From the IMG/VR virus record IMGVR_UViG_3300028586_000785: a stretch of 64,000 bases of DNA. One strand, written 5' to 3'. The translations under genes were made by a program, and so were the position numbers. Below the pieces are notes generated by a model that saw only the letters and a program-made list of their open reading frames with translations, had not been told where the DNA came from and did not search any database. Below are positions 20,594-63,403 of this stretch, one piece after another. Source of the DNA: an uncultured virus (IMG/VR IMGVR_UViG_3300028586_000785) (taxonomy: Duplodnaviria; Heunggongvirae; Uroviricota; Caudoviricetes). Every line of letters begins with the position of its first letter. The stretch's first letter is position 1.

Positions 20594-20653
20594 AGCAAGT
20601 TCTCCTTCGTTGCTGGAAGATAGTACAACAACGAAGGAGAACTTGCAACAGTC

Positions 20654-41548: not shown

Positions 41549-43015
41549 TTACTTGTCGGTGAGGTCGATCTTGACCTTGCGGAGGAAATCGGGGATTGCA
41601 TCGTAGTACTGCTCGGCACCAGCGAAAGAGACAATACCGCCGACGATGAACTCCGTCTTACCCTCGGGCTTCTCGCTCGGCCAGGGGGTCTCGTTGTCCG
41701 TGAGGACGATACCGACATCGACCTTCATCTCAGCGAGCTTGGTGAAAGCAACACGCATGTCGGTTCCACCGCCACCCACGAACTCGATCTCCGAAACGCG
41801 ACGGATGCGCTTGACATCCTTGACATTAGCGTCCACCGAGAAGATGTAGACGTTATCGACTCCACCACGGCGGATGATGTCGTTGACCTCGGTAAGCACG
41901 TACTGAAGGTTATCGAAGTTCGAGCCGGAAGAGTCGAAGGCAATACCCACGTTGATGCGGTGAGCCTTACGCTTCGGGAACATGATGTCATCGACAGGCT
42001 GGACACGACCAGGCATACGCGGGTTGGTGTGCGTACGACCCATCTTGGCACGACGCTGCGTCTGAGCGTACTCGCCACGAAGAACACTCTGCCAGCGAAT
42101 CTTCGGCGGAGCGAGGACGTTCTTAGCCCACTCCTTCACGAAGTTAGGCGTGGTACCGATACCCTTGGAACGATTGGTGCCCTCGCGGTCAGCAGCGTTC
42201 TGGATAGCCTTAGCAACCTCGCTACGAGCGTACTGGTGGTCCATCTCGCTACGCTCAGGAGCCTCACGACCGCTCGCCTCCTTGGGGTCGCTGCCACCGT
42301 GCTGAGCAGAACCGCAGTTGTCCAACTGGTTCTCATAAGGAGTGTCCATGCCGCTCTCACCACGACCAGCACCGGGCTGACCCTGCTGGGGCTGACCGGA
42401 ACCATCGCCAGGCTGACCCTGCTGGGGCTGACCCTGCTGACCCTGCCCCTGACCCTGCTGAGGCTGACCAGAGCCGTCGCCCTGCTGAGGCTGACCCTTC
42501 TGCTTGTTGCCGGACTTCTTCTGCTGGTCCTTGAACTTCTCCATGAGAAGGTCGTAGTAGTCCTCGGCGCGCAGACCATCCTTGAAACCGAACGTGCTGG
42601 GGTAGTAGATCTGCTTCATGACAGCCTTGGACTCGTCAGGAAGGTTCTGGTTGATCTCCATGTCGGTAGCCCAAGCCCAGAAGTCCTCGACGGAATGCTC
42701 AGCCTGACGACGGTTGAAGTGCTCGAAGAGGATGTGGTAGCACTCGTGAATCAGTCCACCAGAAGCCCACACGATTCCAAGCTCCATGACACGCTCGAAG
42801 TGGATGTAGACACGACCGCGCTTGTCCACCGCGAAGGTGAAACCCTCGCCCATCTCGTCGCCAACGGCAATCGGGTAGAGCGAGACAAGCTGCGAACGGA
42901 TGTAAGGGGCACCAACGCCGTTCGACATTGCGCGAATGGCAATGGTGTCGAAGAAGTCGCGCTGCTCGGACGTGAGCTTGCGGTAGCTGTTGCCGCTGCT
43001 GATGATGCTTCCCAT
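41549..43015 (-). CDS. DUF2201-like metallopeptidase/VWA protein (copy 2, canonical)
   Basis: Start re-called to MGSIISSG (GAAAGAGG RBS); TFAVD, HECYH (HExxH), DMEINQ, AEDYY, Q/G-rich linker, VWA DSSGS, GGGGTD, LTD. Confidence 0.9.
   Translation of the reverse strand: MGSIISSGNSYRKLTSEQRDFFDTIAIRAMSNGVGAPYIRSQLVSLYPIAVGDEMGEGFTFAVDKRGRVYIHFERVMELGIVWASGGLIHECYHILFEHFNRRQAEHSVEDFWAWATDMEINQNLPDESKAVMKQIYYPSTFGFKDGLRAEDYYDLLMEKFKDQQKKSGNKQKGQPQQGDGSGQPQQGQGQGQQGQPQQGQPGDGSGQPQQGQPGAGRGESGMDTPYENQLDNCGSAQHGGSDPKEASGREAPERSEMDHQYARSEVAKAIQNAADREGTNRSKGIGTTPNFVKEWAKNVLAPPKIRWQSVLRGEYAQTQRRAKMGRTHTNPRMPGRVQPVDDIMFPKRKAHRINVGIAFDSSGSNFDNLQYVLTEVNDIIRRGGVDNVYIFSVDANVKDVKRIRRVSEIEFVGGGGTDMRVAFTKLAEMKVDVGIVLTDNETPWPSEKPEGKTEFIVGGIVSFAGAEQYYDAIPDFLRKVKIDLTDK
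42374..42500 (-). repeat. Coding tandem repeats (GQPQQG / GDGSGQPQQG)
   Basis: Imperfect GGCTGACCCTGCTG units repeated within the linker. Confidence 0.8.
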
Positions 43016-43037
43016 GATTTCCTCTTTCTGGTGAGTA

Positions 43038-43084
43038 ACTGACTGACAATAAGAAAGGTACCACAGATGAAGAGGTCGTGTCAA
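43038..43084 (-). promoter_or_regulatory. Sigma-A-type promoter with TGTCAGTCAGT box at the predicted start site
   Basis: TTGACA (43079-84)-N18-TACCTT (43055-60) with extended -10 TG, then TGTCAGTCAGT (43038-48). Confidence 0.7.
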
Positions 43085-43089
43085 ACGGG

Positions 43090-44175
43090 TTATCCCATTA
43101 TTTTCTGCATCCATCTTCTGTTGCGTTGTCTACGCTGCCAGCGCCTCAATTCTCTTGCGTAATCGGCATCTGCATCGCGAGGATAATCAACAGGATTAGT
43201 GATCTCGGAGATGACCTGTGCCATGAATCCACCGGAAGCGCCCTTAAGAAGGTCTCTAAGACCCCAATCCTTGCTGATCTTACCATCTTCGTCTTCTGCT
43301 TTGCGAACCGTGTTAGCTCCTTGCATGGTGGACTTGGTGATGTAGTACGCAGAAACTAGGTAACGCGATCTAGGGTACTTGGAAACAAGAGCCATTTTGA
43401 TGGCATCCTTTAGCTCTCTTTTGAGTGCCTCAATTTCAGCATTGGTTCTTGGGTGCTTCTTTTCGTCGATAACCTTACGGTGCCCCTTGGGTAGCTCGCC
43501 ATCTTCATCCAACTCTTCCTTTGAGACAATGAACTCAGCTTCCTCTTCATCCCCTCCGATGCGCGAAGCAGTAACAATCACCTCATCAGCGACAACACCA
43601 TCCTTCATAGATGTGGCAGCAAAATCACCTTCATGGGCGCTATCGAAAGCCTCTGCCGAGAGTACGTACGATTCATCTTCGTAGACGGTTTCGCCTGTAA
43701 TTTCGGTGTACTCGCGAGGGCGGAAGTCTCTAAGTACTTCGGCGGCTTGCTCTGCTGCTTCATCACCAAAGTCTTCTGGGAATGTGTAGGGGATTACAGC
43801 CCAGCTAGCACCAGATGCAGAGTACCAACCATCACCTTCTTCGACGTTCCACCTATCATCTACCTCTTCTTGCCTTGCGGGAGAAAGGAATACACCCTTA
43901 CCCTCATCGGTCGATACAACATAGATGCCCTGTCGAACTTCTTCGACGTTGGTAGGCTTACCCCAAGGTGAGTCTTTGATGGAGTCCTTACTGAACCCAG
44001 CAGAATAGAAGTTGGTACCCATTACCGTGTTTGGGGAAGTAGGGATTTTTGCCAACTGTGAACCTGATAGGTCGTCACGACGAATCCACACGCGGGTCTG
44101 GCGACCATTCCTATCGACTCTTGGGACAAGAATTAGACCTGCACGAGTAATGTGAGGTGATGATTTCGTTGGCAT
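43090..44175 (-). CDS. Hypothetical protein: N-terminal VDRNG tag plus a divergent DUF7007-like domain
   Basis: SPWG...GIYVVST..GVFLS...GWY...WAVIPYTFP...LRDFRP.EY..ITG resembles the plasmid DUF7007 pattern as recalled. Confidence 0.6.
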   Translation of the reverse strand: MPTKSSPHITRAGLILVPRVDRNGRQTRVWIRRDDLSGSQLAKIPTSPNTVMGTNFYSAGFSKDSIKDSPWGKPTNVEEVRQGIYVVSTDEGKGVFLSPARQEEVDDRWNVEEGDGWYSASGASWAVIPYTFPEDFGDEAAEQAAEVLRDFRPREYTEITGETVYEDESYVLSAEAFDSAHEGDFAATSMKDGVVADEVIVTASRIGGDEEEAEFIVSKEELDEDGELPKGHRKVIDEKKHPRTNAEIEALKRELKDAIKMALVSKYPRSRYLVSAYYITKSTMQGANTVRKAEDEDGKISKDWGLRDLLKGASGGFMAQVISEITNPVDYPRDADADYARELRRWQRRQRNRRWMQKIMG

Positions 44176-44295: not shown

Positions 44296-45030
44296 ATGGC
44301 AGAAGTTCGTTCGGTATCATCGACAGGTGGAGAGAAGGGTGTCAAGGTTCAGGCTTACGACAAGATTCCCCCTAGTGCTCTCATTGAGCTAGCTAAGTTG
44401 TATGGCGTTGGTGCACTCAAGTATGCCGACCATAACTTCCGCAGAGGTTACGAGTGGAGGAAGTCATACGCAAGCTTGCAGCGTCACGCCAATCTATTCT
44501 GGTCTGGTGAAGACATTGATCTAGAAATGAACGTCAGCCACATGGCATCTGTCGCCTGGCATGGCTTTGCGCTTACTGAGTTCTTCTTCACCTTCCAGAA
44601 GTTTGATGATAGACCGGTTGCTCCTATTCATGTCGAACACGACTTCGAAGTTGGTGTCATCGAGTCCAAGGACTATCCCGCCAAACATCAGGATACCGTT
44701 GTGCGGGCAGTGGGCGAAGTAGAGCCACGATTTGATCTGCTGCCTCAGCGACCTTTGGCTGAACTTGCGCGCTTCTATGGCGAAGATGCTGCCGAGCCGG
44801 TGACGGACTATGGTAGAGCATGGAGTGATGAATACGCGAGACTACAGGAACATTCTGTAAGGTTCTGGGCTGGCGAAAACTACTTCCCCGCCACTGGTCA
44901 TCTCAATAGTGTGCACATTACGCACCACGCATTCAACCTAATCGAACTGTCGCAGCGTTTCGTTGATTACGATGACAGACTCATTGAAGGTGCCGCCCCT
45001 ATCGGCTTTACCTCACTACCCAACAAGTAA
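44296..45030 (+). CDS. dATP/dGTP diphosphohydrolase-domain (DUF5664-like) protein, internally duplicated
   Basis: GGEKG...YDKIP..AL.ELAKLYGVGALKYADHNFRRG..W...SLQRH..FWSGEDID...SHMASVAWH; second degenerate copy RFDLLP..LAELARFYG...FWAGE. Confidence 0.8.
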   Translation: MAEVRSVSSTGGEKGVKVQAYDKIPPSALIELAKLYGVGALKYADHNFRRGYEWRKSYASLQRHANLFWSGEDIDLEMNVSHMASVAWHGFALTEFFFTFQKFDDRPVAPIHVEHDFEVGVIESKDYPAKHQDTVVRAVGEVEPRFDLLPQRPLAELARFYGEDAAEPVTDYGRAWSDEYARLQEHSVRFWAGENYFPATGHLNSVHITHHAFNLIELSQRFVDYDDRLIEGAAPIGFTSLPNK

Positions 45031-45039
45031 AGCCTCAAG

Positions 45040-45077
45040 CTAAGAAAGCCCCCGATTGATTTCGGGGGCTTTCTTAG
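45040..45077. terminator. Bidirectional terminator between convergent genes
   Basis: CTAAGAAAGCCCCCGA / TCGGGGGCTTTCTTAG 16-bp inverted repeat. Confidence 0.85.
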
Positions 45078-45086
45078 TTGATGGGG

Positions 45087-46166
<1,080 letters not shown>

Positions 46167-52481: not shown

Positions 52482-53516
52482 CTACACTACGTCTGCGTTC
52501 CGCCATTCAAAATCGTCAAGAAGAGATTTAGTTGTCTTGGCAACACTTTCGGCAGCAGTTGCAACCATCTTTTCTCGGTCGTTGCCAGTTCTTACCCCAG
52601 CCCAGCCCGCAACATAGCTTGCTGATGATTCGGCGTGCTCATCCATGCCGTTAGCGCGAAGAAGGACATATGCGCCGGACTCTGCTTCCACTTCCATTGA
52701 GTTGCGCTGTCCGCCGTGACCAGTGTGGTATTCATCCGCTCTTTCGAGATGTCCGGAGGCAATATGGAACAGTTCGTGCGCGAGAGTTTTGGTCTTCTCT
52801 GCATCGCTCATAGAGTTGAGGATCTTGACTGTCTTATCGGTAGGGTCGGTGGAGGTCGCACCACGTACCGTACCGCCCAGAGAGTCCACGTACTCGACTG
52901 TGAAGCCCTTAGCCTTGATAGCAGACTCAATGTCATCACTAAGCCCTGCGGGAGGCGTAGAAGCCATTTCGCGGTGCGAGGTAGGCAGTTCCTCACCTTC
53001 TGTTTGGGCAATATCAAACACTCCAACACCAAAGAAGATGGATATTTCGGTCTTGACGGGCTTGCCATCTGGACCGATAACCTCATCACCATTCTTATCG
53101 GTCTTGGTAATCTTCTTCTTTCCGAAGGCATTGATGGCGATTGCCTTTTCACCCCTACGAGGGTGACGACCGAGAGATTCCCACGTCTTGTATCCTGCTA
53201 CCCGGGTTGCCTTACCTTGCGTCTGCATATCGATAAGGATCTGGTTGTTCCACGAGTAGTTTCGGAACTTGCTCATGGACTTGAGGTAGTGATTCCAGTT
53301 CTCATCCTCTGCCAAAGCTGAAACTCGCGCCTGTAGCTCATCCCTATAACCATCAAGACGCTCCTTAAGGGTTGGTCCCTTCTTCTCGGACTCCTTGGCT
53401 GCACTTTTTGGCTTCACACCTGCTACTCGACTTGTCGATGCCTTGGATACCCTTTTCTTGCGAGTGGTCTGAACACCGTTCTTATCAACGATAGGTGTGT
53501 CTACTAGCTCGTTCAT
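52482..53516 (-). CDS. ardC: ArdC-like ssDNA-binding/metallopeptidase antirestriction protein
   Basis: FRNYSWNNQILI..Q...ATRVAGYKTWESLGRHPRRGEKAI...VFDIAQTEG; KTLAHELFH; EVEAES. Confidence 0.85.
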   Translation of the reverse strand: MNELVDTPIVDKNGVQTTRKKRVSKASTSRVAGVKPKSAAKESEKKGPTLKERLDGYRDELQARVSALAEDENWNHYLKSMSKFRNYSWNNQILIDMQTQGKATRVAGYKTWESLGRHPRRGEKAIAINAFGKKKITKTDKNGDEVIGPDGKPVKTEISIFFGVGVFDIAQTEGEELPTSHREMASTPPAGLSDDIESAIKAKGFTVEYVDSLGGTVRGATSTDPTDKTVKILNSMSDAEKTKTLAHELFHIASGHLERADEYHTGHGGQRNSMEVEAESGAYVLLRANGMDEHAESSASYVAGWAGVRTGNDREKMVATAAESVAKTTKSLLDDFEWRNADVV

Positions 53517-53570: not shown

Positions 53571-53994
53571 GTCTGCTGAGGCGATGCCGAACACTTTCGT
53601 AATCACCTGACACCCTAATGGAATCGATAAGAATGGTATCTGCCGAGTAACCTGACTGATTCATCCATTCGCGAACAGCATGACTAGTCACGGTGCTGTT
53701 CTTGCACAAGAATACGATGACCGAACGCTTCTGAACAATCAAAGCGATCTCTTCCTTATTCACTCTCACGCGGCGAGCCAGAATTTCATAACCCTTATCT
53801 TCGGCGGCGTTCTGGAGGCGCTGACGGAACCAGAAGCTCGATTCACCCTCCGGGGGATAGTCATTCTCATCAGAACCGAACTCGGTTCCTCGCCATTTTG
53901 GTCGAGTGTTCGATTCCCCGCTGACTTTGAACGAAATTGTCTTTGGATTACCGTTTCGATCAAGGATGGTCTTTGTGGCGGTTGTCTCAGTCAT
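53563..53994 (-). CDS. Degenerate YraN-like (restriction-endonuclease fold) protein with N-terminal LDRNG tag
   Basis: KGYEILARRVRVNKEEIALIVQKRSVIVFLCK aligns by eye with YraN Gy.Il.rN.r...GEiDiia....lvFvEVK, lacking the catalytic D and E. Confidence 0.5.
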   Translation of the reverse strand: MTETTATKTILDRNGNPKTISFKVSGESNTRPKWRGTEFGSDENDYPPEGESSFWFRQRLQNAAEDKGYEILARRVRVNKEEIALIVQKRSVIVFLCKNSTVTSHAVREWMNQSGYSADTILIDSIRVSGDYESVRHRLSRLS

Positions 53995-54032
53995 GACCAG
54001 GCTCCTATTGCTATTAGTGACTACACTCTACC

Positions 54033-54410
54033 TTATGACGCATCAGGTAGAACATCTTGAGATTGAGTGACATGAGTTTCTCCGGAAACAAGAGTACGTT
54101 CAATTTCGCCGTTCTTCTTGTATCGAATTCTCACAGGTAGAGTATTCCTATCTAGCCAAGTGCGCTTATCTGACTGGATCTTCATGACTGAACGTGCACC
54201 ATAATTAGCAACTTCCGCAATGGTGGCATCGAGTTCGTCGAACTGTTCTTCGGGAGTCTTCTGGGTGTCTACGAGTCCACTTAGATAAGCAACATCTACA
54301 TACTCATTCCATGTCTCCTGAAGCTCTTTTCGCAAGCTCATGATCTCAGCGGCTATGTCGGTCAGAGATTTACTTGGATCGATGTCCTCAGGCGAGCATG
54401 AAAACATCAC
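54033..54410 (-). CDS. Hypothetical protein
   Basis: 125 aa; 4-nt overlap with the upstream gene. Confidence 0.7.
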   Translation of the reverse strand: MMFSCSPEDIDPSKSLTDIAAEIMSLRKELQETWNEYVDVAYLSGLVDTQKTPEEQFDELDATIAEVANYGARSVMKIQSDKRTWLDRNTLPVRIRYKKNGEIERTLVSGETHVTQSQDVLPDAS

Positions 54411-54811
54411 ACAAACCCATCACCAACGGTGTTTTTGGGCTGCGGCGCGACGTAGTTGTAAGGAGTAGCCTTACCCATCTCACCAAGGTCGGTGTGGTCA
54501 GAACCCTGCTGAATCTCCTTAGCGGGGAAGCGGTACTTCGAGAAAACAACGGTGTCGCTGTCTTCGAGGTGCGCCTCGGTAGGCTTCTTCATGACATCGA
54601 CCACGACCAGCTTGAGATCCTCTTCACCCGGAATGCTGAACGTACCGACCTCATAGCACGAAGGAGCTTCGTCGCGAATCATCTGCCAGAACCGATCCAG
54701 ACGGCGACGGGTGGTAACAATGCGAAGAGTTGCCACCTTGACCATGTTCGGCGCAGCGGGCGCATCCTTGACAACATCAGTACTGGGCATTGCATCAAGC
54801 TTAACGGGCAT
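54407..54811 (-). CDS. Hypothetical protein
   Basis: 134 aa; GAAAGG RBS; TTGACT-N17-TAAGTT promoter candidate at about 54847-54875. Confidence 0.75.
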   Translation of the reverse strand: MPVKLDAMPSTDVVKDAPAAPNMVKVATLRIVTTRRRLDRFWQMIRDEAPSCYEVGTFSIPGEEDLKLVVVDVMKKPTEAHLEDSDTVVFSKYRFPAKEIQQGSDHTDLGEMGKATPYNYVAPQPKNTVGDGFV

Positions 54812-54885
54812 AAGTAGACCTTTCTACGGTTCTTTCTACTAGCTACAACTTAGTGCATGTTGACACCAAAGTCAAATTGGTCTTA

Positions 54886-54978
54886 CTGATTGAGACACTA
54901 ACCCCGGCGAACCAGGGACTTCGTATCACGTCGGCATCACGGCGGAACATCCCAATAATAGGAGAGTGTCTCAATCAG
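54886..54978 (-). CRISPR. Candidate degenerate single-spacer mini-array (crRNA-like element) inside a 14-bp inverted repeat
   Basis: Minus strand after the cas6e stop: GACACTCTCCTATTATTGGGATGTTCCG (28 nt, I-E-like GGG-ATGTTCCG end), CCGTGATGCCGACGTGATAC (20 nt), GAAGTCCCTGGTTCGCCGGGGTTAGTGTC (29 nt, stem with UUCG loop). The two 'repeats' are not similar in sequence. Confidence 0.4.
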
Positions 54979-55609
54979 AAGTCTTGTTGTCGATGGTTAG
55001 TAGACCGCAGCCATATCCCTTAGCTCGACCAATTCCACCCACCATAGCTGCTCTTAGCGCATCCGCATCATCAATGCGACCTGAGCCATGTACACGAGCG
55101 ATAGCTAGCGTTACCTTAGAACTGCCTCTTTTGAAGGTGTCAATGTCGTACGAGTCAATTGACAGCGCATTGGTTTTGAGACCCGCGCCGGTAAGCTTTG
55201 CACCAATCCACTCTTCGAGATCTTCCTCTTTGATGGGGACTCTTTTGTTTGACTGAGTAACTGTGTTTACGGGATTGACAGCCAGTGAAAAGTGGTAAGT
55301 ACCATCGTCAGAAAGGCTATCTAGCAGAGGCTGACACGACACCTGCTGGAATCCACCATCGGGAGCAGAAGACCACCCCGATGCTTCTACAATATGTTCT
55401 ACCGAAGGAGCCTCAGGACTAACGATGAGCAGTGCAGTTTCCTTCCCCGATCCGTCCAATCGCCATAGAACGCGGTTCTCACCAATCACCGTCTTTTGGG
55501 TAGGAGCGAAAGCCTGCAACACTGTGGCGTGAGCAACCTGTCTGGAAACAAGCAGCTTCCTTGAAGCAGCCCTATACGTGTTGATAGGGATAGAGGTCAT
55601 GTAAGTCAT
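54971..55609 (-). CDS. cas6e: Type I-E Cas6 (Cse3/CasE)
   Basis: QVAHATVLQAF, RVLWRLD, LLIVSP..P, FSLAVNPV, GIGRAKGYGCGLLTI G-loop. Confidence 0.95.
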   Translation of the reverse strand: MTYMTSIPINTYRAASRKLLVSRQVAHATVLQAFAPTQKTVIGENRVLWRLDGSGKETALLIVSPEAPSVEHIVEASGWSSAPDGGFQQVSCQPLLDSLSDDGTYHFSLAVNPVNTVTQSNKRVPIKEEDLEEWIGAKLTGAGLKTNALSIDSYDIDTFKRGSSKVTLAIARVHGSGRIDDADALRAAMVGGIGRAKGYGCGLLTIDNKTSD

Positions 55610-56328
55610 TTCTCTCCCTCGGCTACACTCATCGCAAATGTCATAGCTGGATTGCTATGGACACGCGGGACGGGATTTGTCTCTTGTTCAACATTGATGC
55701 GTTCGTGGAATACACCGCGAGGGGAATACCTTCTTGCTGCGCTGTCGAAGGTAACTGGGTTGTCCATCACGACATCAGAAAGATACCCTTCATCTTCGTC
55801 AATGGGGTCTCGGAATAGAGAAATTGTGGACTCATCCGTCTTGGGCATGGGAAAGCCAGATAGTGCACCTCTTACATCATCTGCCACTACAGAGTGGAAG
55901 ATAGGCTTGTTAGGTGGGCACGATTTCCTTCCCAAGAACAATGCTCGCTTGGGCTTCCTGAGAGCCTGAGCAACCGAATTGACGAGCGCGCCACTATCTG
56001 AATACAGCGCCACCACAAATTCTGCATCAGCTAGGTAGTACCTCTCGGTGATTCGATTTACCCTGTCGCCCTTAGTCGGCTGAGTAATGATACTGACGGT
56101 ATGGTAATCACGCTGAATTTTTCCTACTGAATCAACACGTACTCCATACGACATGCCTGCGAGGTCAGAAATGTCATCACTTCTGTCTCGACCCATAGCA
56201 TTGGCGACCAAACCGAGTATTGCACTCTTGGTTGGGTAACTCATGGTAGATCTGGCATGACCAATAGTCGTAGTACCCCATGACTGCAATACACCAGACA
56301 GAACCATGATGACGCTAGGCATCAGCAA
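55606..56328 (-). CDS. cas5e: Type I-E Cas5 (CasD)
   Basis: LSGVLQSWG...RST..PTKSAILGLVANAMGRDR, RDYHTV, RYYLADAEF, LFLGRKSCPP. Confidence 0.95.
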   Translation of the reverse strand: MLMPSVIMVLSGVLQSWGTTTIGHARSTMSYPTKSAILGLVANAMGRDRSDDISDLAGMSYGVRVDSVGKIQRDYHTVSIITQPTKGDRVNRITERYYLADAEFVVALYSDSGALVNSVAQALRKPKRALFLGRKSCPPNKPIFHSVVADDVRGALSGFPMPKTDESTISLFRDPIDEDEGYLSDVVMDNPVTFDSAARRYSPRGVFHERINVEQETNPVPRVHSNPAMTFAMSVAEGEK

Positions 56329-57400
56329 CCACTACATTCTTGACGGCGGCAACAAGATCCTTGAGGGGTAGACGCTCAGCAAACGGAATGTCCATTCCCG
56401 CACCAGTGCCAATGTAGAAAGCATGCTCCGGCAAGCCGTAATTGTCATAGAGAGACGACGCTTCATCAATAAGCCGCATTACGGCTTCACTAGCGATGTC
56501 TTCTCCCGACAGCACACTACTGAAAGCAGAGGCAAGAGAAAGAGGCTGATCGTCGGAGATTGTCACGAGGACAAAATGAGGAAGGGTTTGCGCTGCAAAG
56601 CTAGACTGCTTACCAGAGGGCATGGACCGAACAAATGCGTTGACAAAAGCACCAACGGCATCAGCAGTGAACTGAGCGTCACCATCTAGATTTTTGCTCA
56701 GTGTTGCTGTATCAAGACACGCATAGCGGTATACGGTAGAGGACACAAAGTCAATCGATCCGATGATCTTGGTCTTGGACAGTGCATCATCGATACCAAC
56801 AAACGAATCGCGCTGGTTGGTAAGCTTGTCTACACCAATGATGTGAGCAACACTTGCTGCTGCCTCAACGCTAAGCTCGGCGTTTGCTGTCATCATTCTG
56901 CCAAAGAGTGCGAGGTCTACTGTGTTCTTACCGACAAGTGAAGATTTGATTTCAGAAACCGAGATGGACTTCCTTTTACCATCAACCACTTCAACCGCAA
57001 CATCAACCAGACTATCTAGCTGGCTCGGGCTGTAGAAGACGATCATCTTGGAACTAGTGACAGAGCCAGGCTCCACCTCTTCGTTATCGGCTTCTGTCTT
57101 TTCAACAACACCAAGAACGATCTTGACCAAGCTGTCTACTAGCTTGCCATCCGCTTTGGGTCGTACTTCAAGCAGCCTTTTCCTGAACTCTGACGGTAGC
57201 TGAGTCGTTCGGCAACCCATGTAGCTGGCATCATAGTTCTCGGCAAAGAACTGACGAATGGCATACTTCCATGATTGTGAAGAAATACGAGCGCGCTCTA
57301 CGCCACCAAATAGAGCCTTTTTGGGCATACCGCTATCATCGCGGTTGAGTGCCGAAGGCGGCAGTGTCTGAAGAGCATGGATGTTGATGAATTGGGTCAA
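56315..57400 (-). CDS. cas7e: Type I-E Cas7 (Cse4/CasC)
   Basis: FINIHALQTLPPSALNRDDSGMPK..FGG..RARISSQSWK.AIR, DLALFGRM, VEAA..VAH, YRYA, MPSGKQSSFA. Confidence 0.95.
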   Translation of the reverse strand: MTQFINIHALQTLPPSALNRDDSGMPKKALFGGVERARISSQSWKYAIRQFFAENYDASYMGCRTTQLPSEFRKRLLEVRPKADGKLVDSLVKIVLGVVEKTEADNEEVEPGSVTSSKMIVFYSPSQLDSLVDVAVEVVDGKRKSISVSEIKSSLVGKNTVDLALFGRMMTANAELSVEAAASVAHIIGVDKLTNQRDSFVGIDDALSKTKIIGSIDFVSSTVYRYACLDTATLSKNLDGDAQFTADAVGAFVNAFVRSMPSGKQSSFAAQTLPHFVLVTISDDQPLSLASAFSSVLSGEDIASEAVMRLIDEASSLYDNYGLPEHAFYIGTGAGMDIPFAERLPLKDLVAAVKNVVVADA

Positions 57401-57456: not shown

Positions 57457-59487
57457 CTATCTAGACACGATGAGTTCGGCTATGTCCCTTTGATGCATAC
57501 CACTAATGACGGCATCGGTGAGGGTGGCTAGGCTCCCAAAGTCAACGGAGCCACCTCGGGCTATTACCACCCCAGCTAGACTTCGCGCATTCTCAATAGC
57601 CTGCATCTTGTCTCTCGATGCAATCATCTGTGAGACCCGCATGTCAAAAGCATCACCTGATTCATTCTTCAATACATCAAGGAATGCGAACAAACGAGGC
57701 TCTACTGCGTGCGTAGAACTACCATCCGAGCGCCTTTTCCATGAAGACCATATCTTCATGACCTCACTAGCGATGTCACCGGCATTAGAGCGAACAGAAA
57801 TGTCGCTAGCGATAGCCCATCGAACATAACTTCCAAGCTCACGGTCTGGTCCAGTCATGGATTCCAAACCAAGAGTTCTTCTCAATCTGGCTCTAGAAGA
57901 AGCTACCGAAAACAGTTTCTTCTCTCCATTTTGAGTCCGCCAGACACCAAGTAGCTCTTTCGCTGTAGCTGTGTCGGACACCTCGTCTGCGTGGGTGCCT
58001 AGTGCACTTGCAAGCATCTGGATTGCGGCACTTGTCGATGAAGTGTTGGAAGAGATGTTCCTGAACATCCATAGGAAACTTCTATCTAGATCCATTTCGG
58101 CAGAGCGCATCATCGACTTCATCGCCGTGACATCGACCTCGCCGTACTTTGCCGTGAGGTAATCCTTGACGAAGCCATAGTAAGTTGACTTCACCATACT
58201 CACCATTTTGGCTGAATCATCTTCTAGCTGTGCAACTACAGAGGCGCTAGATAATCTTGCGATTGACTCTACAGAGACACTCTTGTCAATGACACCACGG
58301 AAGACCTGAACACGATCATCAGTGCTCGCACCGATGATTCGAACTCTCACCGGTAGCGATATACCTAGCAAGTTGGACACCTTTGCCGCCCAAGTGACAT
58401 TGAGGGGTGCCTGAAAACCAGGCTTACTACGGGGAAGCAATGCTGGAACGTTCTGCCATACAGAGTCCTCCGTGAGGTAGTACGCCGCCATTTCTCCGGT
58501 CTTGCTTTCGCGCCAAGCTGTCTGTGTTTCATGATGCCGCGCCATGTGCACCTGAGAGCTTTTGCTACTCAATGAGTTATTCTCAGAAGAGACAGCAGAG
58601 GTAACCATGCCATCTTCAGCAATGAGCCTTACACTCTTTGCGAACCACACAAAAAGTTGTACCTGACCGGCAGGTTTGGCGCTTCTTTGCTTGAAAACTG
58701 GACGTTTTGACTCTTCGTCGAATTCATACATAGTGGGTACCTTCTTCCCACTCTTCTCTTCCCAGAAAGGCATGTCACTCTTCTTTAGCTGTGAAGGAAC
58801 CAGATTCAGCAGAAGAGTCTCATAGAGATTGCGTCCAGATAGCTGAGTAACCCCAATTGACGAGCACCACCCTCTATGCCCCTTAGGATAGAAGCGCGCA
58901 ATGGCGGTTTCATCGCTCGGGTTCATACCAACAACAGGACTCAAAGGAGCCATCGTGGACCAGGAGTGGTAGGCAATAAGGATGCGCGCTGACTCGGCGT
59001 AGCTCACTCGCGCCGCAAAATCACTGTTCTTGAAAACGCTAATCAGATCTGCATCTGGCATCATCTTACCCAAGCTGTACTTAACAGAAGAGTAGGTTCC
59101 GCTTTCCTTGCTGCTGTACTCCAAGTTCGGTATCTGGAAGAACGGTCTCTTGCTATCAAACAGATCAAAACGATGCTGCCACTCATCTAGGTATGTAGAG
59201 GCGATAGACGACAAAGCACCACTGTCGTCATCCCACAGCATCTTCCACAGAGCAACATCAGCGTTTTTGACGTGGTTCTTCTGCTCTATGAAAAGAGGCG
59301 TTACCGCACGGTACATGACCGCCAAGACAAGTCTCACGACAGATGCCGTCTGCAATGGGTTATCGCATTCGATAGACTTGATCTGAGCCGACTTGATGAA
59401 TACGTCACGAAGCGATACGACATCCGAATGTCCGCTATTCAGGCTCACCGGAATCCAAGGCTCGGATACAAGATTGAAGCTAGGCAA
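57457..59487 (-). CDS. cas8e: Type I-E Cas8e (Cse1/CasA) with C-terminal Cas11 (Cse2)-like extension
   Basis: FNLVSEPWIPV, VSLRDVF, RLVLAVMYRA, YLDEWQHRFDLFDSKRPFFQ, GRNLYETLLLNL; last ~133 aa resemble Cse2. Confidence 0.9.
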   Translation of the reverse strand: MPSFNLVSEPWIPVSLNSGHSDVVSLRDVFIKSAQIKSIECDNPLQTASVVRLVLAVMYRAVTPLFIEQKNHVKNADVALWKMLWDDDSGALSSIASTYLDEWQHRFDLFDSKRPFFQIPNLEYSSKESGTYSSVKYSLGKMMPDADLISVFKNSDFAARVSYAESARILIAYHSWSTMAPLSPVVGMNPSDETAIARFYPKGHRGWCSSIGVTQLSGRNLYETLLLNLVPSQLKKSDMPFWEEKSGKKVPTMYEFDEESKRPVFKQRSAKPAGQVQLFVWFAKSVRLIAEDGMVTSAVSSENNSLSSKSSQVHMARHHETQTAWRESKTGEMAAYYLTEDSVWQNVPALLPRSKPGFQAPLNVTWAAKVSNLLGISLPVRVRIIGASTDDRVQVFRGVIDKSVSVESIARLSSASVVAQLEDDSAKMVSMVKSTYYGFVKDYLTAKYGEVDVTAMKSMMRSAEMDLDRSFLWMFRNISSNTSSTSAAIQMLASALGTHADEVSDTATAKELLGVWRTQNGEKKLFSVASSRARLRRTLGLESMTGPDRELGSYVRWAIASDISVRSNAGDIASEVMKIWSSWKRRSDGSSTHAVEPRLFAFLDVLKNESGDAFDMRVSQMIASRDKMQAIENARSLAGVVIARGGSVDFGSLATLTDAVISGMHQRDIAELIVSR

Positions 59488-62431
59488 CAGCCACCTTCTT
59501 TTCTACCTTCATCTCCAGACCTCTATCGTGCCTATAGGAGATGGAGAAGCTGCGACCATTCAGCGTCATGTTTTCTCTCAATACCAAGACGTGCTTGTGG
59601 CGCAGAATAGGCTCTGAATGCCATTCAGGCATCAGGTCTGTTTCGAACAGGATCTCTTCGTCAACAAGAGCGTCATACTCTTTGCCGCGCAGTCTTAGCA
59701 TGCTGGCGGCAATAGCAAGTGCCGTTTCCCGTGTCGGCTTCGAATTGAAATCAACTGGAAGTCCCGCGCCGTCAAAATCTCCATCAAGAGTCTGAATCTG
59801 ACCTTGACCATTCGACTTTAGGATGATGACTTCTTCTTCATCTTCGATGTCACGAACCTGAGCCAGAGCTTTGGATTCTGTCTTTCCTACTTCGCGATTG
59901 ATATGACTCTGCCAATCGAGAATATCCGTCTCGGGAGCGGGGAGAAGGTAGTTACTGTCAGCCTTGTCTCGCTTTTCGGCAATAAGAGCCTTCCACTCCT
60001 TCTCTGCCTCTCTCCACTGCTCTTTCCATTCTTCGGGCGCACGGACACGATCACCATACCCACGCCGCACCAGCGCAGAGATGTCCTTAGGAAGGTGAAG
60101 TCTACTGTCGTCATCCAGAGCGTACGGACGTAGAGCGTGAACTGCTCGGTAAAGCGTCTTGAGTGGGTAAATGCTTTCGGCGGAATGGTTGATGCCGGGA
60201 ACACCAGAGTCTTCCGCACCGTCCCAATTGGAGACCCCTGCGATATACATGCGAGGCTCTGTAAACACTCTGGGTCGGGTGGGAATCACATGACGGTGAG
60301 TTCTTCCAGCCCTCTGAAGCAGTGAATCGATAGGGGCGATGTCGGATACGCTTTCATCGAAGTCGATATCCAGAGATTGCTCCATTACCTGCGTTCCTAC
60401 GACAATGAGTCTTCTGGGTCGCTTAGAAAACTCCTTACCTAGATAGTTGTTGAGCTTCTGCTCCTTGATAGCTCTATCCAATCCAATGAATCGTGAGTGT
60501 AGGAGTAGCACCTCGACGTTCATGTCAGAGTCCTCAAAGAACTCTTTCATCGCGTCATAGGTCTGCTGTGAGCGAGCAACGGTATTCCGGAAGATGCCAA
60601 TGCAGCCACCGTGAATCAACCTGTCTGACAAGCGCTTAGCAAGCCTTTCGTTGTCAGCACCACCAGCAAGGATGTTGAGCGCCAGAGGGTTCTTATTGGA
60701 AGCCCCCTCAGTATGGTGAACATGAACGCCGGTCTTGTCTAGAACGGAGATGAGTGGATACTTGATAGTGGTGAGGGGCTTGAGGTTGATACCACCCACA
60801 TCGTTCTTAGACTTACGACTCGACACAATCTTTTCAGGGTTGAGCGTAAGCGGAAGGGCAGTTCTGGGCGCACTCATAGCCTGCCTTGAATTCAGACCGT
60901 CATTGTACGCAGAAACTAGATCCTTTCGAATGTCTGTGGGAAGGGTCGCAGAGAGTAGCACCACGGGAACACCGTAGTATCCCAACCACTGCAATGCCCT
61001 ACCGAGGAAGACATTCATGTATGCGTCATAAGCATGCACCTCGTCAAGGATAACAACCTTGTTCGCGAGTGCCAGGTGTCGTAGAGCGACATGCCTGGCG
61101 GCAAGAGCAGAGACAAGAACCTGATCGATTGTTCCAACCACGAAGTTGGACAAGGGTCCAAGTCGAGTACCCTGCGCAAGCCACTTGTTGATGTGACCGC
61201 CATCAATGCTTTCTTCACGTGCGGCATCAAAGAGTTCGGAGAACGTTCCATTGAGACCAGAGCGCGAGTGAGAAAGATACATGGACATGCCGGTACGACT
61301 ACCCGGGAGGTTGCTCACCCAGCTTCTAGCGCGAGCGAAGATAGCATCTGATGTTGCGATGGTAGGTAGTGCCACAAATACACCACTTGCGCCAGTCTTC
61401 TGTGCCATGACCTCAGCAACAGCTAGCGCAGCCTCAGTCTTTCCTTCTCCCATTGGTGCCTCAATGATAATGAGTCCACTATCGTTGAGCGGCTTGACAG
61501 CTTCTAGCGCAGCGCTCTGTACAGGTCGAGGCGGGAAACCAAATCTCGTGTGGAAGAACTCAGCACCTGCATTAGGTGGAACAGAAGGATTCCACTTAGA
61601 GGGAATCGGTAGAGCCGAGAGTGCCTTGACCGCCCTGTCAGTCTCTTTCTGGACATTTACGTCAAGTGACTTACTCTTCAACGACATATTGCAGCCAAAG
61701 CCCTGAGAAGCGCCCCAGTCGGCAGCGACCACGAATCCCATCAAGATGGTTTCGGCTGAGCGAGATACATCCGAAGTGGACCACGATGCAAACTTCTTGT
61801 TAGCCCCAGAAATGGCAGCGGCATAGTCAAAAATCTCACGCTGCACCTGGACCCACAACGGGTCAGACAATCCCATGATGTCTTCTCGACCAACACATGC
61901 AGCGAGCAGTTCATGAGACAGAGGGTGACCGTGGTGGCTTCCGACAATGATTGCGCAAGAGTCGGCTACAGACTCCGAGACTCCGTATTCGAGTAGAAAC
62001 TTCTTGACCAAGATTGCAGAGATAACCTCGTGCCGAATAAGGCTTCTGTCAAGACCACGCGGCACATGAAGACCGTTCTTTCCCATGAACGCATCATTGA
62101 GTTCATTGACGTAATCATCTTCTGATGCAAGGAATACGGGGGAGGATTTACCTAGGTCGTGAATACCGGCAAGGAAGATGGCAAGGGTGCGCGCATCATC
62201 ATCGCCTCCCACGGCAATCGAGACATCCCTCTTTGCTGCCTCTGGTAGGTACTCATCATATAGTCTAGATGCGACTAGAGCCGTATCAGCAAGGTGTCGG
62301 TACAGGGGCATCCAGAAGGTAGTGTCCTTACCCTTCTGGGTCTTACCCCAGACCGAACGCGCCGCAATAGATAGGCTCTCAGCCTTGCGTGCTACACGGA
62401 GCGCGTGCTTCTCATGGTTAGTTGGCATCAT
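59480..62431 (-). CDS. cas3: Cas3 HD nuclease-helicase
   Basis: WGK..PLYRHLADT, HDLGK, RHE, HHG, ADW (HD domain); APMGEGKT, DEVH, SAT, QRAGR.HRH (SF2 helicase). Confidence 0.97.
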   Translation of the reverse strand: MMPTNHEKHALRVARKAESLSIAARSVWGKTQKGKDTTFWMPLYRHLADTALVASRLYDEYLPEAAKRDVSIAVGGDDDARTLAIFLAGIHDLGKSSPVFLASEDDYVNELNDAFMGKNGLHVPRGLDRSLIRHEVISAILVKKFLLEYGVSESVADSCAIIVGSHHGHPLSHELLAACVGREDIMGLSDPLWVQVQREIFDYAAAISGANKKFASWSTSDVSRSAETILMGFVVAADWGASQGFGCNMSLKSKSLDVNVQKETDRAVKALSALPIPSKWNPSVPPNAGAEFFHTRFGFPPRPVQSAALEAVKPLNDSGLIIIEAPMGEGKTEAALAVAEVMAQKTGASGVFVALPTIATSDAIFARARSWVSNLPGSRTGMSMYLSHSRSGLNGTFSELFDAAREESIDGGHINKWLAQGTRLGPLSNFVVGTIDQVLVSALAARHVALRHLALANKVVILDEVHAYDAYMNVFLGRALQWLGYYGVPVVLLSATLPTDIRKDLVSAYNDGLNSRQAMSAPRTALPLTLNPEKIVSSRKSKNDVGGINLKPLTTIKYPLISVLDKTGVHVHHTEGASNKNPLALNILAGGADNERLAKRLSDRLIHGGCIGIFRNTVARSQQTYDAMKEFFEDSDMNVEVLLLHSRFIGLDRAIKEQKLNNYLGKEFSKRPRRLIVVGTQVMEQSLDIDFDESVSDIAPIDSLLQRAGRTHRHVIPTRPRVFTEPRMYIAGVSNWDGAEDSGVPGINHSAESIYPLKTLYRAVHALRPYALDDDSRLHLPKDISALVRRGYGDRVRAPEEWKEQWREAEKEWKALIAEKRDKADSNYLLPAPETDILDWQSHINREVGKTESKALAQVRDIEDEEEVIILKSNGQGQIQTLDGDFDGAGLPVDFNSKPTRETALAIAASMLRLRGKEYDALVDEEILFETDLMPEWHSEPILRHKHVLVLRENMTLNGRSFSISYRHDRGLEMKVEKKVAVA

Positions 62432-62476: not shown

Positions 62477-63292
62477 TTATGGGGCGGTGTATGCGAATAC
62501 CTGAGTGCTGATGGTCTCGTTCTTTGAAAGGTCTCCCTTTTCAAGAGAACGACACTTCGCTCCAACCTTGTAGTTCGTCTTTACGCCCTTGACCTTGTAG
62601 TTGTCGTCGAGGAAGTCAAGAGACTGATTGTTGGAGCTAGACCATGCACCAGATTTTGTGCTGCCGTTGCCGTAAGTAACGCGAATCTGATAAGCGGGTG
62701 CGGTGGTAGGACCACATGTGACACCCGTCCATGTGAGGTTTTCAACTCCATTGGTCATCGTGATTGATGCCGGGATGCCGATGGGTGCAGCAAGCCTGTC
62801 AGGCACCGTTGGCTCAACATTGGCAGGCGGCACATATCCTGGTCTACAAGTAAGTGGGAGGGTTAGCTTGGCTTTTTCGACCGCAGTAGGGTTCTCAGAA
62901 GAGACGTAATATATCTTGCCGGTCTTTACCTTGCCGGACACGATGTATTCATTGTTGTAACACCACTGCACAGTTGGGTTTTCTTTGAATGAAGATGTAG
63001 AGAACGTGTATGGATACTTCCACTTCGACAGGTTGTCTAACCCGCCGTTACTTGGCACGAAGTTCTGATTCACCGTACCCTTGGCAGCAATCCAAGCCTC
63101 CTGCGCAAAAGCCATATTGACTAGCTGTGTACGGACAACATTGTCTCGCTGGTTGTTGATAATGCCAGGCGCTGTGAGAGTTCCAGCAGCAATCAAGATT
63201 GCAGAAACAGCAACAGTGATTGTTTGCATGATCGAGTTCTCCGCGCGATCAGATCGCACAGAGGGCATTAGTTTTGTAAACCAGTTAGTCAT
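62477..63292 (-). CDS. Type IV pilin-like membrane-anchored protein with Cys-paired C-terminal beta domain
   Basis: Start re-called to MTNWF; hydrophobic helix TITVAVSAILIAAGTLTAPG followed by NNQRDNVVRTQLVNMAFAQEAW pilin-like helix. Confidence 0.55.
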   Translation of the reverse strand: MTNWFTKLMPSVRSDRAENSIMQTITVAVSAILIAAGTLTAPGIINNQRDNVVRTQLVNMAFAQEAWIAAKGTVNQNFVPSNGGLDNLSKWKYPYTFSTSSFKENPTVQWCYNNEYIVSGKVKTGKIYYVSSENPTAVEKAKLTLPLTCRPGYVPPANVEPTVPDRLAAPIGIPASITMTNGVENLTWTGVTCGPTTAPAYQIRVTYGNGSTKSGAWSSSNNQSLDFLDDNYKVKGVKTNYKVGAKCRSLEKGDLSKNETISTQVFAYTAP

Positions 63293-63403
63293 CAACTCAT
63301 CCTCGGAACCGTCGTTTTTGGGTCTGTTTTGACGACGGTCACAGTTTCGTATCACTCTACACTACCTGCTAGTATCACCCCTGTTTTATTGGTAACATCA
63401 GGC

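Follow-up and report, generated by a model that had tools for sequence, protein, structure and literature searches.

A candidate one-spacer mini-CRISPR in the 3' tail of a type I-E cas operon carried by an uncultured virus

Which guide does a type I-E effector use when no CRISPR array lies beside it? This question is raised by a 64,000-nt stretch of DNA from an uncultured virus of the Caudoviricetes (IMG/VR record IMGVR_UViG_3300028586_000785), which was analysed as a whole and is called the window below. Its minus strand carries cas3 (983 aa, 59480..62431; Pfam Cas3_HD at 4.6e-39, with Cas3-like_C_2, Cas3_C and DEAD), cse1/cas8e (676 aa, 57457..59487; Pfam CRISPR_Cse1 at 2.5e-60), cas7e (361 aa, 56315..57400; Pfam Cas_CT1975 at 8.3e-86, TIGR01869 at 6.4e-74), cas5e (240 aa, 55606..56328; TIGR01868 at 2.5e-41) and cas6e (212 aa, 54971..55609; Pfam PF08798 at 1.3e-42, TIGR01907 over its cut-off). 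All five signature genes reach a curated Pfam or NCBIfam cut-off. Cas3 comprises the HD nuclease, the helicase and the Cas3 C-terminal domain, and when it is aligned to PDB 4q2c the H, HD, HH and DEvH motifs are present. Cas3 thus retains its nuclease and helicase motifs, and the Cas proteins are intact.

The small subunit is less straightforward. There is no separate cse2 ORF between cse1 and cas7 or elsewhere in the operon. PDB Cse1 chains align to residues 2-406 of Cse1 only, and the C-terminal 197 aa of the protein resemble Cse2 at values under the respective cut-offs (Pfam Cse2 at E 0.006, TIGR02548 at E 8e-4). The comparison of this extension with the Cse2 profile gave an hhalign probability of 2.8%, its AF2 model is all-helical at low confidence (pLDDT 49.5), and no short homologues of it were found. 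Judged by these profiles, a Cse1-Cse2 fusion is possible. In the related 202,737-bp IMG/VR record G001 the search for Cse2 was negative, with a control that gave a signal in only 1 of 14 genomes.

As for guides, no CRISPR array was found in the window, and there is no Cas1 among its 48 ORFs scanned against Pfam. No array, defined as at least three copies sharing an 11-mer at 40-90 nt spacing, was found in the 202,737 bp of G001 either, and Cas1 was not found there by a search whose control gave a signal in 7 of 14 genomes. Nor did the window or G001 yield an ordinary array from the repeat family to which the unit described below belongs. Since neither an array nor cas1 turned up in these two sequences, the structured unit directly behind cas6e is the only candidate guide for this Cas3-Cascade set. 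The window's Cas6e is recorded on contigs of up to 536 kb, and the element to which it belongs may be of about that length (~536 kb). Judged from 64 kb of an element possibly that large, the unit is probably the sole guide RNA of an otherwise array-less system.

What, then, is this unit? The preliminary description of the locus had pointed to a perfect 14-bp inverted repeat overlapping the cas6e stop, and the same coordinates were recovered here. On the minus strand, the 5' arm of the outer stem lies at 54965..54978 (CUGAUUGAGACACU in RNA) and the 3' arm, assigned from the inverted repeat and from covariation, at 54886..54899, where it overlaps the tail of the second repeat-like unit. The arms of 14 nt each are 100% complementary and 65 nt apart, and the stop codon of cas6e (54971-54973) falls within the 5' arm. 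By our own arithmetic estimate, the chance of a perfect 14-mer pair within 200 nt somewhere in 64 kb is ~0.05. The list of inverted repeats for the window, with a minimum length of 13 nt and a range of 200 nt, has 18 entries. Apart from this pair, the perfect ones among them (45040-45077, 46116-46161, 40018-40064, 29205-29239) enclose loops of 6-19 nt and have the look of plain hairpins; of those listed, only the pair at 54886-54978 encloses a long structured insert. For RNA of the cas strand the predicted folding energy is -39.8 kcal/mol (z = -4.2), a stability that none of 200 shuffles matched. In the window the opposite strand folds about equally well (-39.4 kcal/mol), which is what one would expect of an inverted repeat. 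Strong plain hairpins also stand at other gene ends in the window.

Inside the outer stem, hairpin units, an I-E-like handle and a 20-nt segment had been described, and all of them are indeed in place, on the same strand as the cas genes. The first repeat-like unit has as its stem hairpin 1 (54950..54963, UCCUA-UUAU-UGGGA, 5 bp, predicted in all three loci compared below), which retains the CC(C/U)/GGG base of an I-E repeat stem. This hairpin leads into a predicted 8-nt 5' handle, AUGUUCCG (54943..54950), which is followed by the 20-nt spacer-like segment CCGTGATGCCGACGTGATAC (54923..54942), lying between the two repeat-like units and able to form a hairpin of its own (hairpin 2). The second unit (54894..54922) consists of GAAGU, hairpin 3 (CCCUGG-UUCG-CCGGGG, 54917-54902) and the 8-nt tail UUAGUGUC. 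Cas6e cuts I-E repeats at the 3' base of the repeat hairpin. From this cutting mode and the positions of the hairpins, a mature crRNA-like RNA of 49 nt (8 + 20 + 21) is predicted at 54902..54950. Cutting by Cas6e is not assured, as hairpin 1 is short and AU-rich compared with hairpin 3.

Is the likeness to CRISPR repeats real? In the arrays beside the closest cellular relatives of Cas6e the repeats are 29 nt long and read GTGCTCCCCGC-4 nt-GCGGGG, then ATGAGCCC or ATGATCCG. The handle of the first unit is identical at 7 of 8 positions to ATGATCCG of a real repeat (locus L197), the second unit holds a hairpin of the I-E type, and the geometry is kept; the anatomy of repeat, spacer and repeat suggested earlier thus stands. 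In 29-nt frames, the first unit resembles real I-E repeats at z 1.4-2.9 over its own shuffles in the three loci and the second, over nine comparisons, at z 1.0-4.5; a control segment gave z -1.0 to 1.8. Two features expected of CreR/CreA-type RNAs are therefore found here: two repeat-like units round a spacer-like segment in a cas locus, and a 5' handle in the first unit with a 3' hairpin in the second. Rfam gave no match to its CRISPR-DR families in 53900-55700, even at E up to 10, and no match of any family at gathering score in the window. The element illustrates why array finders and Rfam miss such guides: its two repeats have hardly more in common than the base of the hairpin.

Checking for conservation downstream of cas6e homologs had been proposed, and such conservation was found. 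The same element stands directly after the cas6e stop in a metagenome contig (L110; Cas6e 50% identical) and in G001 (locus L111; Cas6e 51% identical), so that it is present in all three loci, which share a common four-way junction fold. Standard pairs occupy 98.9% of the 92 pair cells of the three-locus alignment. Five pairs are changed on both sides, four in the outer stem and one in hairpin 3, a covariation that rests on three sequences only; its observed values were reached by 0 of 500 shuffles, slid controls were 30-46% paired, and RNAalifold independently recovers the same helices. In the outer stem the both-side changes concern 4 of 14 pairs and every cell is paired. Hairpin 1 retains 5 of 5 pairs, one of them via a change from U-G to C-G, and hairpin 3 is retained in all three loci with one double change from G-C to A-U. 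Given this conservation with covariation in three of three related loci, the element is more than a product of chance.

The sequence between the helices is retained as well. In the handle, ATGTTCC(G/T), only the last base varies among the three loci; the spacer is identical at 16-17 of 20 positions between loci, and the geometry of 8-nt handle, 20-nt spacer and 21-nt 3' part is common to them all. No other stretch of the locus is as well conserved as handle and spacer together, which show 86-93% identity between loci, compared with 63-65% for cas6e DNA, 72-75% for the next gene and 61-70% for the intergenic stretch. Three of the four variable positions of the spacer (two in pairs, one in the loop) preserve the pairing of hairpin 2. 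Since the spacer folds on itself and most of its changes respect that fold, its conservation could reflect structure and not a target. Cascade ignores every sixth position of a spacer, and position 18 is the sole variable spacer position that is such a sixth position. The 8-nt tail of the second unit is different in all three loci. A second guide downstream of hairpin 3 was considered and rejected, because its would-be handle differs in all three.

Other relatives are few. IMG/VR scans with Cas6e, Cas7, the hairpin-3 16-mer and the handle motif gave no further relative beyond G001; among the IMG/VR matches listed for the 16-mer nearly all are single and none is at array spacing. The metagenome scan for relatives of the locus found one locus, and none was found in GenBank phages. 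Two further relatives of Cas6e are on record (P0004 to P0006).

Could the element be a cis-acting 3' structure of the cas mRNA, a relic of a lost array with no working guide in it? Such a structure might stabilise or insulate the 3' end, or offer Cas6e a binding site through which the operon is regulated by feedback; guides for the Cas proteins would in that case have to come from another source, such as host arrays. The covarying outer stem, which in each of the three loci begins at the stop codon, fits this idea, as do the strong plain hairpins at the other gene ends, the lack of a spacer target (see below) and the substitutions in the spacer, most of which preserve its hairpin. However, there is no run of U after the outer stem in any of the three loci, where the bases are not U-rich, and the terminator scan lists no intrinsic (Rho-independent) terminator at the element; the preliminary description had named a mere terminator-like structure as the finding that would overturn its reading, and these results speak against it. 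A purely structural role also leaves unexplained why the single-stranded AUGUUCC and most of the spacer are retained base for base (86-93% against 63-65%), and why the retained parts are exactly those that a mature I-E guide needs. In our opinion this explanation is rather unlikely, yet it is the one to be taken most seriously among the rivals.

One may also ask whether the element acts as RNA at all. A perfect palindrome whose two strands fold about equally in the window could be a DNA feature, such as a protein-binding palindrome, a recombination site or a small insert with terminal inverted repeats, and coordinated changes can also arise in half-sites to which a dimer binds. Yet 10 of the 92 pair cells are G-U and pair only in RNA of the cas strand, the inner hairpins covary too, and a separation of 65 nt between the arms is unlike an ordinary operator. 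With the covariance model the cas strand reaches 99-113 bits; the other strand reaches 20-23 bits in L123/G001 and L110, and for the window no match on that strand is listed. The model found no second copy of the element. That the element occurs once in each genome, and in all three genomes at one and the same position, speaks against a mobile insert; the idea of a MITE was rejected. We regard a role as DNA as highly improbable.

The reading that we favour, with a probability of roughly 0.6, sees in the element a degenerate mini-CRISPR with one spacer, yielding a 49-nt guide with a fixed 20-nt spacer. It would be co-transcribed with cas6e, in the 3' tail of the cas3-cse1-cas7-cas5-cas6e mRNA of a huge phage-like carrier that, on this reading, has neither an ordinary CRISPR array nor cas1/cas2. 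Cas6e would cut at the 3' bases of hairpin 1 (between 54951 and 54950) and hairpin 3, which would release the 49-nt RNA made of AUGUUCCG, the 20-nt guide and a 21-nt hairpin end. A shortened Cascade, built with some four Cas7 subunits, would take up this RNA and thereby be hard-wired to one conserved target, which might be blocked or passed to Cas3, depending on how far the 20 nt pair. The outer stem would pair exactly those parts of the units that a mature guide can spare, and it probably keeps the precursor in a defined fold after the ribosome leaves the stop codon.

Parts of such a design have precedents. CreR is reported to retain the 5' handle in its first unit and the 3' part in its second, and mini-arrays in cas loci are reported with spacers of 20-60 bp (10.1101/2023.03.10.532045; Shmakov et al., PMC10120712). 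These cases share with our locus two degenerate repeat-like units round a short spacer-like segment in a cas locus. They also differ from it. The known I-E cases presented there sit between cas3 and cse1/casA, match the casA promoter beside an AAG PAM, and occur together with ordinary arrays that supply competing guides; in our locus the unit follows cas6e, with whose stop codon it overlaps, and neither a promoter match nor an ordinary array was found. Further, the unused halves of the two units pair here into a covarying outer stem, unlike in the CreR/CreA cases as described there, and no outer clamp stem on mini-arrays is described in the available part of the mini-array survey (PMC10120712).

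Effector-only CRISPR-Cas loci of huge phages have compact arrays with a median of six repeats, whose spacers target other phages or genes of the host (Al-Shayeb et al. 2020, PMC7162821). With those loci ours shares a very large phage-like carrier, intact interference genes and the fact that no Cas1 was found, but unlike those arrays it has a single unit with unlike repeats and a near-constant spacer across three lineages. As for the length of the guide, E. coli Cascade accepts shortened spacers with fewer Cas7 subunits; those shortened guides were engineered, and interference required spacers longer than 20 nt (Kuznedelov et al. 2016, PMC5159557). A natural 20-nt guide would stand at the border of interference.

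A parallel in size comes from viral crRNA-like RNAs, for which one preprint gives I-E spacers of 24 and 21 nt and a 49-nt I-F RNA that assembles with four backbone subunits (10.1101/2024.10.29.618823). They are phage-borne degenerate units with short spacers, and 49 nt is the size predicted here. Could our element, like them, be an RNA decoy or hijacker of a host type I-E system, one that soaks up Cas proteins or steers them to a host cas promoter? That phage-borne units of this sort are presented there as acting on host I-E and I-F systems speaks for it, and so does the resemblance of the handle to that of a cellular I-E repeat. The viral RNAs of that account, however, work through Cas proteins of the host, with a spacer copied from a regulator of the host, whereas the element here brings its own Cas3 and Cascade, a full effector set. 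It has also stayed beside the element's own cas6e through ~50% protein divergence, and no matching cellular unit or cas promoter is among the 28 pattern hits described below. We consider a decoy improbable.

A fixed guide is also known from another arrangement. In CRISPR-associated transposons, atypical repeats carry fixed 'homing' guides. The likeness would extend to a degenerate pair of repeats with one conserved guide that directs a Cascade without adaptation genes to one fixed site; unlike those transposons, our locus has no transposition machinery and has Cas3.

If the guide is fixed, where is its target? The spacer was searched on both strands, at its full 20 nt and as a seed with every sixth position free. 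In the 64-kb window the best matches are at chance level, the upstream sequences of cas3, the 292-aa gene and the downstream genes contain no match, and neither strand of L110 and L111 has one above chance. A feature of CreR/CreA-type RNAs, a match of the 5' part of the spacer to a promoter beside a PAM, was thus not found in the window, in L110/L111 or in the three promoter regions. G001 has three matches of at least 10 seed positions, where ~1.5 are expected, and only one of them has an I-E-type PAM: ATG followed by 10 nt, situated 14 nt before a tRNA-Met gene and near chance level. In IMG/VR the pattern scan returned 26 stretches, one of which is G001 and the others unrelated; a group of related IMG/VR contigs sharing a stretch that matches most of the spacer was judged to be chance. 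Among 185,579 species genomes there were 28 exact pattern hits, scattered over unrelated taxa, with ~35 expected by chance, and BLAST of handle plus spacer against GenBank phages gave only matches with E >= 0.4. The search for promoters with an I-E-type PAM that had been proposed for the spacer hence yielded no convincing target in the window, in L110/L111, in G001 or in the databases.

The two genes downstream had been put forward as candidate partners of a regulatory or antitoxin guide, a suggestion that our analysis does not favour. These small genes (134 aa and 125 aa, 54033..54811, minus strand) belong to no family in Pfam, NCBIfam or PHROGs and have no usable Atlas hit. In L110 and L111, too, the element is followed by homologues of these genes; in the relative, synteny in any case extends over the whole neighbourhood. 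A promoter-like site for them lies on the minus strand at 54847..54875, with TTGACT (54875-54870), 17 nt and TAAGTT (54852-54847), and its TTTGACTTT is invariant in all three loci. The consensus promoter scan omitted this site, as the -10 matches at 3 of 6 positions only; the downstream genes appear, from the sequence, to have a conserved -35 box of their own. The words CGTGAT and GTGATAC were considered as a promoter motif and dropped because they are not enriched. In CreTA an adjacent toxin has a promoter repressed by the RNA; the spacer here has no match in the promoter-like region of the next genes. With no toxin candidate and no target in any nearby promoter, an antitoxin role of the CreA type finds no footing.

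A more specific version of the mini-CRISPR reading can be formulated, which we offer only as a tentative possibility. The locus may be a single-purpose I-E machine, with a Cascade of about four Cas7 subunits, a small-subunit domain fused to Cse1 and its sole guide in its own mRNA tail, that directs Cascade together with Cas3 to a single conserved site, whether in the host or in the element. Each transcript would then deliver one guide plus the proteins that bind it, and the guide would have remained near-unchanged as the proteins drifted to ~50% identity. One candidate site would be the promoter-like stretch before the tRNA gene in the tRNA cluster of G001.

If the mini-CRISPR reading is true, this would be a natural and complete Cas3-Cascade effector that has abandoned adaptive immunity altogether and serves one hard-wired guide, with a mobile element and not a cell as its carrier. 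It would show CRISPR machinery domesticated into a regulator or nuclease with a fixed target, and a compact, self-contained operon with the guide in its mRNA tail could be of practical use. Knowing the target would tell which benefit so large a phage draws from ~8 kb of cas genes.

Some observations on the carrier and its surroundings may be added. Of the tRNA genes called in G001 (202,737 bp), 64 have a named anticodon and one is unassigned; there is also a tmRNA. Three RNA-library runs have assembled contigs on 54223-54647 and 55678-56343 only, outside the element and possibly from DNA carry-over. The runs containing the stretch are leaf-litter, straw, phyllosphere and plant metagenomes.

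In our opinion, the minus-strand unit at 54886-54978, behind cas6e, is best read as a degenerate one-spacer mini-CRISPR in the tail of the cas mRNA, which would yield a 49-nt guide with a fixed 20-nt spacer; we put the probability of this reading at roughly 60%. All the features listed in the preliminary description (inverted repeat, hairpin units and 20-nt segment) are present. The two 14-nt arms, 54886-54899 and 54965-54978, are perfect inverted copies of each other, and one of them contains the stop codon of cas6e (54971-54973). On the cas strand, the insert runs from a 5-bp hairpin ending GGG and followed by AUGUUCCG, through the 20 nt CCGTGATGCCGACGTGATAC, to a second unit composed of GAAGU, the hairpin CCCUGG-UUCG-CCGGGG and 8 nt. 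The element RNA folds into three small hairpins inside the outer stem (-39.8 kcal/mol, z = -4.2; 0 of 200 shuffles as stable). Among the perfect inverted repeats of the window, only this one has a long structured insert; the others are plain hairpins at gene ends with loops of 6-19 nt. The strong inverted repeats of 14-21 nt with such loops at 45040-45077, 46116-46161, 40018-40064 and 20595-20646, three perfect and one 95% complementary, are probably terminator-type hairpins; the small ribonucleotide-reductase gene lies between the first two. The outer stem lacks a following U-run, and a scan for terminators gave no entry at this position.

Three proteins are closely related to Cas6e (46-51% identity); the next ones are cellular type I-E proteins, mostly from Actinomycetota, at about 40% and below. 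Our DNA comparison took in the window and two of these three, L110 (a 3,616-bp metagenome contig) and L111 (a stretch of the IMG/VR record G001, which shares the window's gene order over 20 kb). Conservation downstream of cas6e homologs, which had been named earlier as a check, is indeed found: in both loci the stop codon of cas6e marks the start of the element. Standard pairs make up 98.9% of the 92 pair cells in the three-locus alignment, and double-sided changes affect five pairs, of which four belong to the outer stem and one to hairpin 3, that of the second unit. The observed pairing values are reached by 0 of 500 shuffles, partners slid by 1-3 columns are 30-46% paired, and RNAalifold, unaided, gives the same four helices. 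The covariation support thus appears good, not overwhelming, coming as it does from three sequences, in one of which the structure was first seen. G-U pairs occupy 10 of the 92 cells, and a covariance model scores the cas strand at 99-113 bits vs 20-23 bits for the opposite strand in L110 and in L123, another stretch of G001; among the matches listed, none is on the reverse strand of the window. Hence what is conserved is a cas-strand RNA and not a palindrome in the DNA, and for the same reasons a feature acting at the DNA level is very unlikely indeed. The model finds exactly one element per genome.

For comparison repeats, 301 genomes of one actinobacterial class were searched with the window's Cas6e; 23 matched, and arrays were examined beside the four best matches. 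The cellular 29-nt repeats consist of GTGCTCCCCGC, four loop bases and GCGGGG, then ATGAGCCC or ATGATCCG. The first unit ends GGG-ATGTTCC(G/T), and its handle, the predicted 8-nt 5' end of the guide (54950-54943), is identical to ATGATCCG at 7 of 8 positions. The CCC/GGG base of its stem is kept and the top shortened; in L111 it starts GTGCTCCC, as do real repeats. The second unit retains the hairpin CCCYGR-4 nt-YCGGGG and, in part, the five pre-stem bases, while its last 8 nt are unlike in all three loci. When the units were globally aligned with three clean repeat consensuses and compared with shuffled units, z was 1.4-2.9 for the first unit, 1.0-4.5 for the second and -1.0 to 1.8 for a control segment. 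The proposed repeat-spacer-repeat anatomy therefore holds insofar as both units outscore shuffles against real I-E repeats, but it gains nothing from Rfam, where no CRISPR-DR model matches the element; this is unsurprising for such worn repeats. Judging by the handle, hairpin and alignment-score comparisons, each unit keeps exactly the half that mature I-E guides contain, and the same half-by-half pattern is reported for CreA and CreR in the available text of 10.1101/2023.03.10.532045. The outer stem pairs the halves that the mature guide discards, joining the first unit's 5' part to the second unit's 3' tail, and in each of the three loci it starts at the stop codon; the available text of PMC10120712 describes no such clamp for mini-arrays. 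In cellular loci the array comes after cas6e-cas1-cas2, so that with cas1-cas2 lost it would adjoin cas6e, just where the element stands.

The operon itself, all on the minus strand, comprises cas3 (59480-62431), cse1 (57457-59487), cas7 (56315-57400), cas5 (55606-56328) and cas6e (54971-55609), each reaching the curated cut-off of type I-E models. The Cas proteins are intact and conserved, and the HD and helicase motifs of Cas3 are in place by alignment to solved Cas3. There is no separate cse2 gene in the operon, no Cas1 in a Pfam scan of 48 window ORFs, and no CRISPR array in the window by three repeat searches. Directly upstream of cas3 lies a family-less 292-aa ORF (62477-63355, minus strand), matched by a 290-aa ORF in the same position in L111; between the ORF and cas3 there is a conserved sequence, TTGCYT-17 nt-TAYYAT, that resembles a promoter. 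Cse1 has 676 aa, of which solved Cse1 chains align to residues 2-406 only, and its L111 relative (684 aa) has the same layout. The last ~197 residues match Cse2 models weakly (E 0.006 and 8e-4, both under the cut-offs), profile comparison of this tail with two cellular Cse2 proteins gives a probability of 2.8%, no short homologues of it were found, and its predicted structure is all-helical and of poor quality (pLDDT 49.5). Going by these comparisons, the protein may be a Cse1-Cse2 fusion; if so, each complex would have one small-subunit domain, which suits a guide 12 nt shorter than usual.

In G001, 96% complete according to its source, we found no array of at least three copies with a common 11-mer and a spacing of 40-90 nt, no second element copy and no Cas1, the control of the last search being detected in 7 of 14 genomes. 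Since a selected effector set needs a guide and no other candidate is in sight, it seems reasonable to regard the element as a guide candidate rather than a relic. The spacer is nearly constant across the three lineages, which points either to a structural constraint or to a conserved target that is fixed. Of its four variable positions, three leave its own hairpin intact, as expected of a cis-acting structure without guide function. We find that alternative rather doubtful, however, because intact effectors need a guide and because handle and spacer (28 nt) are 86-93% identical between loci against 63-65% for cas6e DNA; the next gene stands at 72-75% and the intergenic stretch at 61-70%, all approximate values. 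A decoy against a host system is, in our view, improbable.

Cas6e cuts I-E repeats at the 3' base of the hairpin. Cuts at the 3' bases of hairpins 1 and 3, in the first and second units of the putative mini-CRISPR, would release a product of 8 + 20 + 21 = 49 nt. This size has precedent: I-E crRNA-like RNAs from prophages have spacers of 24 and 21 nt, and an I-F RNA of 49 nt assembles with four backbone subunits (available text of 10.1101/2024.10.29.618823), while the Cascade of E. coli can take up shortened spacers, with a smaller number of Cas7 subunits, interference needing spacers >20 nt (available text of PMC5159557). The outer stem may give the precursor a defined fold after the terminating ribosome leaves; alternatively, it could keep the cut ends from separating, or provide a duplex on which another RNase would act. 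Cutting is possible given that Cas3 looks competent from its motifs, and by analogy with E. coli, where 20 nt is the border for interference, blocking would be just as possible.

A promoter target with an I-E-type PAM, as had been envisaged, did not emerge from the window. It holds no match of at least 10 spacer seed positions, none of the best partial matches falls in a promoter, and the promoter-like regions upstream of cas3, the 292-aa gene and the downstream genes have no spacer match. G001 has three sites with at least 10 seed positions matched vs about 1.5 expected by arithmetic. At 72747-72759 (12747-12759 of its stretch L120), the I-E-type PAM ATG is followed by a match to the initial 10 nt of the spacer that G001 itself carries; this site stands 14 nt upstream of a tRNA-Met gene in the tRNA cluster and overlaps a promoter-like TTGACC-18 nt-TACCAT. 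With about 0.1 PAM-bearing sites expected by chance, we regard this candidate target as a lead near chance level. An exact-pattern scan of 185,579 species genomes returned 28 matches in unrelated taxa vs roughly 35 expected by chance, the same kind of scan of IMG/VR returned G001 and unrelated matches only, and GenBank phages gave no significant spacer match.

By anatomy, the element is near the crRNA-like RNAs of degenerate mini-arrays, but it departs from that group in that the searches of the window and G001 turned up no convincing promoter target with PAM and no ordinary array. The effector-only CRISPR loci of huge phages fit in theme, although those loci, in the available text of PMC7162821, carry small ordinary arrays. 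We see no evidence for the suggestion that the two downstream genes (134 and 125 aa) are partners of the RNA: they are conserved after the element, yet this holds for the entire neighbourhood, and the invariant stretch TTTGACTTT, located downstream of the element and upstream of their start and unlisted by the promoter scan, suggests from its sequence a promoter of their own. Neither gene has a family match, and the Atlas gave no usable match for the 134-aa protein.

The window comes from a phage-like mobile element of very large size. Among the products of the window's large ORFs are a DnaE-type polymerase, DnaB helicase, clamp-loader subunit, NAD-dependent ligase and ArdC-like protein, together with NrdI and a class I ribonucleotide reductase; many others belong to no family. 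Neither tRNA genes nor Rfam families were found in the window. Contigs recorded with the window's Cas6e reach 536,346 bp, and the best accessible relative, the 202,737-bp record G001, encodes a tmRNA and 64 tRNAs whose anticodon is named, plus one unassigned call. These lie in one ~17-kb cluster (L120-L121, about 64.9-81.8 kb), the tmRNA tag being ANASRNDFALAA. Given its plasmid-like genes, all on the minus strand, for an ArdC-like anti-restriction/metalloprotease protein (52482-53516), a Replication-relaxation domain protein (13583-14899) and an AAA_10 ATPase (27754-30510), the carrier, instead of being a plain phage, may be a phage-plasmid or megaplasmid relative. A protein with a dATP/dGTP diphosphohydrolase N-terminal domain is encoded at 44296-45030 on the plus strand (PF18909, 1.3e-34); enzymes of this type are associated with phages whose DNA carries modified bases. 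Tandem CTGACCCTG-type repeats with periods of 9 and 15 nt (42356-42493) encode a repetitive peptide stretch inside the minus-strand ORF 41549-43114, which has DUF2201 metallopeptidase-like and VWA-like domains. Contigs from three phyllosphere metatranscriptome libraries match 54223-54647, in the two downstream genes, and 55678-56343, in cas5/cas7, some at 90-95% identity; their source may be RNA or carried-over DNA, and these matches place relatives of the element in leaf-surface communities.
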